14,927 bases of DNA. Source: a virus (Duplodnaviria; Heunggongvirae; Uroviricota; Caudoviricetes). How positions within the stretch are numbered: position 1 is the first letter of the stretch; each line of letters starts with the position of its first letter. Positions 1 to 14,927 of this stretch are shown here, piece by piece. The notes under the pieces are model-generated. The model was not told the origin of the DNA, made no database searches, and saw only the letters and a program-made list of their open reading frames with translations. The stretch is taken from IMG/VR virus record IMGVR_UViG_2667528045_000001. The stretch is one strand, 5' to 3'. Both the position numbers and the translations under genes were made by a program.

Positions 1-119
1 TATAACGAATGGCATCCGCATAGTGCACTGGGTTATCGCTCGCCACGGGAATATCTGCGGCAGCAGGCCAGTAATGGGTTAAGTGATAACAGGTGTCTGG
101 AAATATAGGGGCAAATCCA
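1..119 (+). mobile_element. Right end of IS2 (IS3 family): 3' end of the transposase ORF (frame 1, stop at 106-108, translated ...[33 protein letters not shown]) plus the terminal inverted repeat ending ...ggggcaaatcca at 119; the element runs off the window to the left
   Basis: Near-identical to the remembered IS2 right terminus (ttaagtgataacag.tgtctggaaatataggggcaaatcca) and to the InsD C-terminus; partial element only. Confidence 0.85.
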
Positions 120-274: not shown

Positions 275-799
275 ATGAAGTTATGGCCTGTGTTGACTGG
301 CATTGCACTCTCTTTCACTCTGATAGCATGTAAGGCCCCGACACCACCTAAAGGTGTGCAGCCGATTACAAATTTTGACACCAACCGCTACCTCGGAAAA
401 TGGTATGAAATAGCTCGGCTTGAGAACCGATTTGAACGTGGTCTGGAACAGGTCAGCGCCACTTATGGGAAACGGAACGACGGAGGGATTAGTGTACTTA
501 ATCGTGGATATGACCCAACGAAAAACAAATGGAGCGAGAGCGAAGGTAAAGCATACTTTACAGGAGATAATACAACTGCAGCGTTGAAGGTTTCGTTTTT
601 TGGCCCCTTCTATGGTGGCTATAATGTAATCAAACTGGATGATGAGTATAAGTATGCTCTTGTCAGTGGTCCGAACAGAGAATACCTATGGATTCTGGCA
701 CGGACTCCAACTATTCCAGATAATGTAAAAGCAGACTATGTGCGTACTGCTCAAAAATTGGGATTCAATGTCAATGAACTATTATGGGTCAAACAATAA
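275..799 (+). CDS. blc: Outer-membrane lipoprotein of the bacterial lipocalin (Blc) family
   Basis: Signal peptide with lipobox LIAC; lipocalin motifs GKWYEIAR and KVSFFGPFYGGYNVI, clearly similar to but diverged from remembered E. coli Blc; visibly AT-rich. Confidence 0.85.
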   Translation: MKLWPVLTGIALSFTLIACKAPTPPKGVQPITNFDTNRYLGKWYEIARLENRFERGLEQVSATYGKRNDGGISVLNRGYDPTKNKWSESEGKAYFTGDNTTAALKVSFFGPFYGGYNVIKLDDEYKYALVSGPNREYLWILARTPTIPDNVKADYVRTAQKLGFNVNELLWVKQ

Positions 800-6308: not shown

Positions 6309-7016
6309 ATGGTTCAGAATGAAAAAGTGCGCAAAGAATTCGCCCAGCGGCTAGCGCAAGCCTGTAAAGAAGCTGGTCTTGATGAACATGGTAGGGGAAT
6401 GGCCATAGCCCGTGCCCTTTCTCTTTCGTCCAAAGGCGTTAGCAAATGGTTTAATGCTGAGTCTTTACCACGCCAGGAAAAAATGAATGCGCTTGCGAAA
6501 TTTCTAAACGTTGATGTTGTTTGGCTTCAGCACGGCACTTCGTTAAATGGAGCGAATGATGAAGATACTTTTTCAATTGTTGGCAAATTAAAAAAAGGGT
6601 TAGTGCGCGTGGTTGGTGAGGCAATTCTTGGTGTTGATGGTGCCATCGAGATGACCGAAGAGCGCGATGGGTGGCTCAAGATTTATAGCGATGATCCAGA
6701 TGCCTTTGGTCTTCGTGTAAAAGGAGACAGCATGTGGCCCAGAATAAAATCAGGAGAATATGTACTCATTGAGCCTAACACCAAAGTATTCCCAGGTGAT
6801 GAGGTGTTTGTCAGAACCATTGAAGGGCACAACATGATCAAGGTTCTTGGCTATGACAGAGACGGAGAATACCAATTTACAAGCATCAACCAAGACCACA
6901 GGCCAATAACGTTGCCTTATCATCAAGTAGCAAAGGTGGAGTATGTAGCTGGTATTCTGAAGCAATCTCGCCACCTAGATGACATCGAGGCCAGGGAATG
7001 GCTGAAAAGTTCATGA
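6309..7016 (+). CDS. cI: CI prophage repressor (N-terminal HTH, C-terminal LexA/S24-like autocleavage domain)
   Basis: HTH near the N-terminus; C-terminal GDSMWPRI serine motif and lysine typical of S24 peptidases; divergently arranged with cro. Confidence 0.9.
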   Translation: MVQNEKVRKEFAQRLAQACKEAGLDEHGRGMAIARALSLSSKGVSKWFNAESLPRQEKMNALAKFLNVDVVWLQHGTSLNGANDEDTFSIVGKLKKGLVRVVGEAILGVDGAIEMTEERDGWLKIYSDDPDAFGLRVKGDSMWPRIKSGEYVLIEPNTKVFPGDEVFVRTIEGHNMIKVLGYDRDGEYQFTSINQDHRPITLPYHQVAKVEYVAGILKQSRHLDDIEAREWLKSS

Positions 7017-7145: not shown

Positions 7146-8045
7146 ATGTCCCAAGAATTATCTTTAACCTTTACCGAAAACATATATTATTCAACTAAAG
7201 AACCTGTAAGCATCAAAGATGTGATTACCTCCCTTCAAGGGTGGGAGGCCATCGCAAAACAATCAGAAGGTGTTTTGCAGGAACTGACAGGGGCTAATAT
7301 CCTTGATATATCGGTGCATGTTGCGCGATTAGAAGCAGGAAGCCTTTATGAAGATATTGTTATTAAACTCCTCTTTGGTAGCCAAGAAGAAATGGACAAG
7401 TTTCTTGCTGGCGCTCATGCAAAGATCGGAAATGGGAAAATGAGAAACGCTCTCGTTGGTGCTGTTGTTATTGGTCTGGTTGGATATGGCTTAGTTCTAG
7501 CAACTAAGGCTATGGCTCCAAGCAACACCTCCCACTTTGAAGCAAATAACAATACAATCATCAATATTGGTGCCGGTGAGGCTAATATTTCACCTGACCG
7601 TCTTCAAGCAATCATAGAAAGCACGGTAACCAATAAGAAGACTCTTGCCAAAAGTTCCATTAAGACGCTTGCCCCAGCTAGGGCAGACGAAGGATCTACG
7701 ATGGTCATAGGTACAGGGGGTGGTACAGTGACCATTCCCGCTGAAACCATTAAAAAAGCCCCAACTGAAGTTGTCTTCACACCAGAGTCATATACTCAGG
7801 ATCATTTTGATGTTGATGTTGAAATCCGTGCATTAGACCTCGACAATCCAGAGAAAGGTTGGGCTGCTGTTATCCCTGGATTAATAGATCGAAGAGTAAA
7901 TATGGTTCTTGGCCCCAACGTAAACCCATCAGATTTTGCAGGTAAATTTTCTGTACGTGCTGATATAACAATAACGTACCAGCTCAAATCATCAGATAAA
8001 AAATACCAACCGAAAGAAGTCTTTATAAAAGAAATAATCAAATAA
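7146..8045 (+). CDS. Unrecognised 299-aa protein with one central transmembrane helix in the rexAB-equivalent slot; candidate prophage-encoded exclusion/defence protein
   Basis: Long uninterrupted ORF with GAGGG RBS, co-oriented with and immediately downstream of cI, followed by a terminator; hydrophobic segment NALVGAVVIGLVGYGLVLATKAMA; AT-rich relative to the lambda-like neighbours; no match to any protein I recognise. Confidence 0.8.
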   Translation: MSQELSLTFTENIYYSTKEPVSIKDVITSLQGWEAIAKQSEGVLQELTGANILDISVHVARLEAGSLYEDIVIKLLFGSQEEMDKFLAGAHAKIGNGKMRNALVGAVVIGLVGYGLVLATKAMAPSNTSHFEANNNTIINIGAGEANISPDRLQAIIESTVTNKKTLAKSSIKTLAPARADEGSTMVIGTGGGTVTIPAETIKKAPTEVVFTPESYTQDHFDVDVEIRALDLDNPEKGWAAVIPGLIDRRVNMVLGPNVNPSDFAGKFSVRADITITYQLKSSDKKYQPKEVFIKEIIK

Positions 8046-10023: not shown

Positions 10024-10095
10024 GCGCGGCGTTACCGCATACCAATAACGCTTCACTCGAGGCGTTTTTCGTTATGTATAAATAAGGAGCACACC

Positions 10096-10260
10096 ATGCA
10101 ATATGCCATTGCAGGGTGGCCTGTTGCTGGCTGCCCTTCCGAATCTTTACTTGAACGAATCACCCGTAAATTACGTGACGGATGGAAACGCCTTATCGAC
10201 ATACTTAATCAGCCAGGAGTCCCAAAAAATGGATCAAACACTTATGGCTATCCAGACTAA
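10096..10260 (+). CDS. cIII: CIII (FtsH inhibitor stabilising CII), 54 aa
   Basis: Below the ORF-track length cutoff; manual translation from ATG 10096 gives [54 protein letters not shown], matching remembered lambda CIII; AAGGAG RBS. Confidence 0.9.
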   Translation: MQYAIAGWPVAGCPSESLLERITRKLRDGWKRLIDILNQPGVPKNGSNTYGYPD

Positions 10261-13589: not shown

Positions 13590-13826
13590 ATGTCTCGACT
13601 AATCACTTTACAGGACTGGGCTAAAGAAGAATTTGGGGACTTAGCACCAAGTGAGCGAGTTCTGAAAAAATACGCGCAAGGGAAAATGATGGCCCCACCC
13701 GCTATAAAAGTTGGTCGCTACTGGATGATTGACCGAAATTCCCGTTTTGTAGGAACGCTTGCAGAACCGCAACTCCCAATAAACGCAAACCCAAAACTCC
13801 AACGGATAATCGCTGATGGCTGCTAG
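13590..13826 (+). CDS. xis: Excisionase-like protein
   Basis: Small protein immediately upstream of and overlapping int by 11 nt; resembles what I recall of Rac-type excisionase; strong AAGAGGAGG RBS. Confidence 0.65.
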   Translation: MSRLITLQDWAKEEFGDLAPSERVLKKYAQGKMMAPPAIKVGRYWMIDRNSRFVGTLAEPQLPINANPKLQRIIADGC

Positions 13827-14865
13827 ACCCCGATCTCACAAAATCTCTATACCCAATTTATATTGCAAATTAGATAAGCGAACCGGAAAGGTATATTGGC
13901 AATACAAACATCCACTATCCGGTCGTTTTCATAGCTTAGGAACTGATGAGAATGAAGCAAAACAAGTTGCTACTGAAGCAAATACCATTATTGCTGAACA
14001 ACGTACCCGACAAATATTAAGCGTCAATGAGCGTCTGGAAAGAATGAAAGGCAGGCGCTCAGAAATTACGGTGACAGAATGGCTTGATAAATATATTTCT
14101 ATCCAGGAGGACAGGCTGCAACATAATGAACTAAGACCCAACTCCTATCGGCAAAAAGGCAAACCCATTCGTCTTTTCCGTGAGCATTGTGGAATGCAAC
14201 ACCTCAAGGATATTACCGCACTTGATATTGCCGAAATAATTGATGCTGTAAAGGCTGAAGGTCATAACAGGATGGCGCAAGTCGTGAGAATGGTGTTGAT
14301 CGACGTCTTCAAAGAAGCACAACACGCAGGACATGTTCCGCCAGGATTTAACCCAGCGCAGGCAACAAAACAACCGCGAAATCGAGTAAACCGCCAAAGA
14401 TTGTCACTGCCCGAATGGCAGGCAATATTTGAAAGCGTAAGCAGACGGCAGCCCTATTTAAAATGCGGCATGCTACTTGCTCTTGTTACTGGACAACGTT
14501 TAGGTGATATCTGCAATTTGAAATTCTCTGATATCTGGGACGACATGTTGCACATTACTCAGGAAAAAACCGGTTCAAAACTTGCTATTCCGCTTAACCT
14601 GAAATGCGATGCTCTGAATATTACCCTTCGTGAAGTTATATCTCAGTGCAGGGATGCTGTTGTTAGTAAATATCTGGTCCATTACCGTCACACTACCTCT
14701 CAAGCAAACAGAGGAGACCAGGTTTCTGCAAATACTCTGACAACGGCTTTTAAAAAGGCCAGGGAAAAATGTGGCATAAAATGGGAGCAAGGAACTGCGC
14801 CCACATTTCATGAGCAGCGATCTCTGTCAGAACGGTTATATCGGGAACAGGTAAGCGTAAACTGA
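13816..14865 (+). pseudogene. int: Tyrosine integrase of the lambda Int family, apparently truncated at the 3' end and lacking the catalytic Tyr region
   Basis: Aligns by eye to lambda Int through the R, K and H-x-x-R catalytic residues (VTGQRLGDI, EKTGSKLAIP, FHEQRSLSERLY) but stops at ...YREQVSVN, before the HKSD...Y segment; the other two frames downstream do not continue the homology. Confidence 0.7.
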
Positions 14866-14927
14866 CCGCCGTATGTAGCCATCAGACGAGAATTGGTAAC
14901 TTAGACGCCCATCTGATATAGACGGAC

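Follow-up and report, generated by a model that had tools for sequence, protein, structure and literature searches.

A phage-21-like lambdoid prophage whose integrase gene is interrupted by an ISEc23 left end where a draft contig stops

Introduction

Tyrosine recombinases cut DNA by forming a covalent 3'-phosphotyrosyl link with it, for which the integrase (Int) of phage lambda uses Y342. The integrase of phage 21 is a tyrosine recombinase of the lambda Int family, and the attachment site of this phage is icd (PMC12803456). Loss or inactivation of the integrase is a recognised route to "grounded" prophages (PMC6379469).

The DNA analysed here, called the window, is the whole of draft contig LIVF01000052.1 (GCA_001420075.1), 14,927 bp in length, and carries a standard lambdoid early region with xis and int at one end. 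A preliminary description of this DNA had reported that the int open reading frame (ORF) terminates after its H-x-x-R box. It proposed either that a dead integrase locks the prophage in place or that the prophage/host junction falls inside the 3' end of int. In our analysis, the reading frame very likely ends early as a result of ordinary gene disruption: an ISEc23 element inserted between codons 345 and 346 of int in a phage-21-like lambdoid prophage, with the contig stopping inside the insertion sequence (IS). Grounded or cryptic prophages, such as Qin with its intQ' in E. coli K-12, resemble this one in that integrase function would be lost. They differ in that here the loss would come from one recent, strain-specific IS insertion, while the other parts of the 14.9-kb segment match relatives with an intact int at 99.9-100% identity.

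The integrase gene and its intact relatives

The features at the int end of the window are as follows.

13590..13826, + strand: xis (excisionase, 78 aa), intact, from the ORF list and a weak Pfam Exc match
13816..14865, + strand: int ORF, 349 aa, with the C-terminal end ...FHEQRSLSERLYREQVSVN followed by the stop
13816..14850, + strand: the first 1035 nt of an int of the phage 21 type (codons 1-345), from identity to WP_000741344.1, Pfam and alignment with lambda Int
14851..14865, + strand: IS-encoded tail of the ORF, GTA AGC GTA AAC TGA, read as V-S-V-N-stop

The int ORF exists as it had been described, ending in ...REQVSVN and a stop codon. Its start is overlapped by xis over 11 nt, and the excisionase is annotated as WP_000088653.1 in identical loci. 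From 13590 to 14851 there are 0 mismatches against a reference locus (L001). The xis and int sequences together are 99.4% identical in nucleotides, over 1262 nt, to those of phage 21 (M61865.1/OL657228.1), and the adjacent position of xis is shared with that phage.

A megablast search of 5,426 complete E. coli genomes with window positions 13816..14927 as query gave matches with at least 80% query coverage in 1,612 of these genomes. The best of them show 100% identity from query position 1 to 1036 (window 13816..14851), where every one of them ends. In the matching genomes, int is intact (1143 nt, 380 aa, WP_000741344.1), and where its 5' part is 100% identical it extends 107 nt beyond the break. 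The host gene icd adjoins the intact gene in the relatives examined, 113 nt past its stop codon. The identical alleles lie where phage 21, with its attachment site in icd, would place them. The preliminary description had also considered that correcting a frameshift or sequencing error might restore a full-length Int. This does not apply here and is rejected, since 1036 nt match the intact alleles with 0 mismatches and similarity is then lost abruptly.

The part of int that is present has the domain layout of lambda Int: it encodes the arm-binding domain, the core-binding domain and, with R228, K251, H332 and R335, most of the catalytic domain. In Pfam, the arm-type DNA-binding domain is found at residues 1-71 (PF09003 Arm-DNA-bind_1, E 1.5e-28, with 99.1 bits where the cutoff is 22), while the Phage_integrase match (PF00589) of the int ORF is partial and covers profile positions 7-147 of 172. 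The intact protein matches lambda Int structures (1z1b) with E 1.3e-55. Alignment and residue counting equate its R228, K251, H332, R335, H355 and Y364 with lambda R212, K235, H308, R311, H333 and Y342. The C-terminus of the 380-aa protein reads ...LYREQ up to the break and GLDTQKLLGHKSRKMTDRYNDDRGKDWVIVDIKTA from there to the stop, and this last part carries LLGH355 and RY364. The R-K-H-R-H/W-Y active-site set is therefore incomplete in the 349-aa protein, which keeps four of the six residues and does not encode H355 and Y364. The second histidine and the tyrosine nucleophile are indeed missing, as had been claimed. Compared with phage 21 Int, the window copy lacks codons 346-380, with His-II and the Tyr nucleophile, and has four IS-derived codons instead. 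This copy of int is a pseudogene and not a functional member of the lambda Int-type family.

The remaining 77 nt encode nothing Int-like in any of their three frames, and the 3' remnant of int is absent from the 14,927-nt window, which holds only two chance 12-13-mer matches to it. The earlier statement that no downstream frame restores Int is thus true for all three frames. It carries little weight, because the contig ends 62 nt after the int stop codon and all of these 62 nt belong to the IS.

The insertion sequence at the break

The following two features lie at the break.

14851..14927, + strand: left end of ISEc23 (IS66 family), consisting of the terminal inverted repeat GTAAGCGTAAACTGACC... 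and the leader, 77/77 identity
14843..14850, + strand: predicted target site GGGAACAG, by analogy with other copies; its duplication would be expected at the right end of the IS

The last 77 nt of the window (GTAAGCGTAAACTGACCGCC...) match the left end of RefSeq copies of the "IS66-like element ISEc23 family" at 77 of 77 positions, and the last four codons and the stop of the int ORF are IS sequence. In all ISEc23 copies compared the element starts with GTAAGCG, which is also present in the window. By analogy, the IS would start at 14851, placing the break at 14850/14851. G14851 is common to int and the IS, so the match to int seems one base longer. The likeness to ISEc23 consists of these 77 nt of left end with the GTAAGCG repeat, while tnpA, tnpB and tnpC, the repeat at the right end and the duplicated target are known from reference copies. 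The reference copy, which is inserted in silP of strain 2013C-4991 (L002), is 2532 bp long, is organised as tnpA-tnpB-tnpC and has imperfect terminal inverted repeats that agree at 22 of 30 positions. The ATG of tnpA lies at position 86 of this IS copy, and the window ends 8 nt short of the corresponding point. The silP copy is flanked by an 8-bp target duplication, GAAAACAG. A second complete copy, in the same prophage type in strain Q65 (L005), has the duplication AAGTGTAT.

On the pattern of these copies, we infer a simple insertion with an 8-bp duplication; the prophage would be located at icd in this strain, as in the relatives. The right junction would be expected to read ...GTTGACGCTTAC (right end of ISEc23), GGGAACAG and GGTCTGGATACGCAAAAGTTG..., followed by icd.

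The IS end also bears on the second proposal of the preliminary description, in which an attachment (att) junction inside the 3' end of int joins the gene to host sequence that completes or truncates it. Some integrase genes do overlap attP. At icd, prophages do restore a 3' gene end, namely that of icd and not that of int (PMC6379469). The sequence downstream of the break is the end of ISEc23 and not host DNA, and the intact int of the relatives stops 113 nt before an icd gene that follows it. The proposal is refuted on these grounds, and we give it a practically negligible probability. An att junction at a tRNA is excluded, with no tRNA gene and no Rfam match near the contig end. A search for host, tRNA or IS sequence past 14866 had been recommended; it returned an IS, ISEc23, and neither host DNA nor a tRNA.

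Directly 5' of the ISEc23 left end, the sequence AACAG is found in the window (14846..14850), in silP (L002 6001..6005) and in a third locus (L003 6001..6005), where ISEc23 is nested in the tnpB of another IS66-family element. Two other ISEc23 copies have different flanks. The shared flank might hint at a target preference of ISEc23 in what is a biased sample, as the query that yielded both matching examples itself contained the flank. We consider it very unlikely that the insertion was selected because it locked in beneficial cargo (the lipocalin-family gene, sieB or the 299-aa gene), or that it reflects a preference of ISEc23 for ...AACAG. If either were true, this position in int would be a recurrent hotspot for the grounding of prophages.

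The two ends of the contig

At the opposite end of the contig, positions 1..119 are one end of an IS2, an element of the IS3 family, and finish with ...TGTCTGGAAATATAGGGGCAAATCCA at 119, which we take to be the IS2 terminal repeat. Relatives without the IS2 insertion match only from window position 120 onward. Both contig ends are repeat-induced assembly breaks, since multi-copy IS ends on both sides are the usual signature of breaks in short-read assembly. The sequence stops 77 nt into ISEc23 because the window is a whole short-read contig that broke at a multi-copy repeat. The 77-nt length of the tail was considered as further support for a graph break, being a common assembler k-mer size, and was set aside; the IS2 tail is 119 nt. 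Among the matches listed in complete genomes, those that cover the IS2/prophage junction in full are joins of two separate pieces. The IS2 end may mark a second strain-specific IS event, one that parted the Q/lipocalin region from the lysis genes.

Since the contig is a short-read draft that ends in a repeat, the join of int and IS could be an artefact, either a chimeric contig end or a minority subpopulation in a strain whose int is intact. This is highly improbable: int gives way to the IS precisely where the terminal repeat (GTAAGCG...) begins, as it does in real insertions, and with an intact int the contig would have continued into icd.

A rearrangement mediated by the IS, through recombination between IS copies or an adjacent deletion, might have removed or moved the att site together with the 3' end of int and, perhaps, adjoining host DNA. 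The right junction lies outside the contig, and in E. coli genomes that contain this IS end, the median number of matching places is 2 and the number reaches 14-16. The IS2 end at the other boundary, in a position that is not contiguous in complete genomes, also fits a prophage reshaped by IS activity. Against this, icd, an important housekeeping gene, adjoins int in all relatives examined and makes an adjacent deletion unlikely, and simple insertion with an 8-bp duplication is the pattern of the complete ISEc23 copies examined. A rearrangement is thus an unlikely account of the missing 3' end, and we retain a simple insertion of ISEc23 into int.

As a general lesson, where an ORF ends abruptly less than about 100 nt from the end of a draft contig, the sequence should be checked against IS termini before biology is inferred.

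Strain specificity of the junction

The int::ISEc23 junction was found in 0 of the 5,426 complete E. coli genomes, counting any place that covers at least 80% of a junction-spanning query. Pattern scans of the GTDB species representatives, with one genome per species, were negative for both the left junction seen in the window and the right junction predicted for it (IS right end, 8 N and GGTCTGGATACG...). The exact 349-aa protein is on record for one contig only, LIVF01000052.1, in 2 samples. No papers citing the assembly accession were found. With the junction absent from the 5,426 genomes and the GTDB representatives, and the protein recorded for a single contig, the insertion is, on these comparisons, a recent and strain-specific event.

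The relatives of this prophage at icd have an intact int and independent IS insertions of their own elsewhere. The prophage of strain Q65, at 100% identity, has ISEc23 between P and ren (L005 6388..8804). In the prophage of GN04592, also at 100% identity, an IS3-family element splits the Q antiterminator gene (L006 3337..5050). This prophage lineage seems to gather different disabling IS insertions strain by strain.

Consequences for excision

In the proposed sequence of events, a copy of ISEc23 would have transposed into int at 14850/14851, with tnpA-tnpB-tnpC in the same direction as int. Translation of int continues for four codons into the IS terminal repeat and then stops. In the resulting protein the domains for arm and core binding are present with four residues of the six in the active site, while His-II (H355) and the nucleophile (Y364) are lost. 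Because cleavage by these enzymes proceeds through the phosphotyrosyl link, a truncated Int without its nucleophile cannot cleave DNA or catalyse recombination between attL and attR. From this enzymology, excision that depends on Int and Xis would be abolished. The prophage is probably locked in place and unable to excise in strain GCA_001420075.1. The claim of a dead integrase that locks the prophage thus finds support in the absence of His-II and Tyr, although its cause, the ISEc23 insertion, had not been named. In principle, a compatible Int could come in trans from another prophage.

The last 107 nt of int would lie on another contig, beyond an IS of about 2.5 kb, together with the att site and icd. 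Stop codons close the int frame at the right end of the IS, so the 3' remnant could not be expressed as a fusion and no gene would be called on it.

An integrase pseudogene disrupted by an IS at a draft-contig end is already known in kind and is ordinary. The value of the finding lies mainly in annotation: int should be recorded as a pseudogene disrupted by ISEc23, and the prophage as probably excision-defective in GCA_001420075.1.

Prophage context

Over 14.85 kb, the contig is 99.9-100% identical to prophages located at icd in several clinical E. coli genomes. The order of the region is lipocalin-family gene, Q, nin region, ren, P, O, cII, cro and cI, and then the 299-aa gene, N, sieB, cIII, kil, gam, bet, exo, xis and int. 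Three further features are given below.

275..799, + strand: lipocalin-family gene, 174 aa, adjoining Q; WP_000780585.1 in identical prophages; apparent cargo
7146..8045, + strand: 299-aa ORF between cI (6309..7016) and N, in the position of lambda rexAB
10083..10141, + strand: lambda cIII thermoregulator RNA element (RF01804, 88.5 bits, E 7e-21)

The lipocalin-family gene had no match in PADLOC. The 299-aa ORF matches phrog_4506, a family of unknown function, over its full length (E 1e-170) and had no match in Pfam or PADLOC; it is a candidate for an exclusion or moron gene expressed in the lysogen. The window holds no tRNA gene. Its sole Rfam match, far from the contig end, is the cIII thermoregulator, an element that is expected in the leader of a lambdoid cIII.
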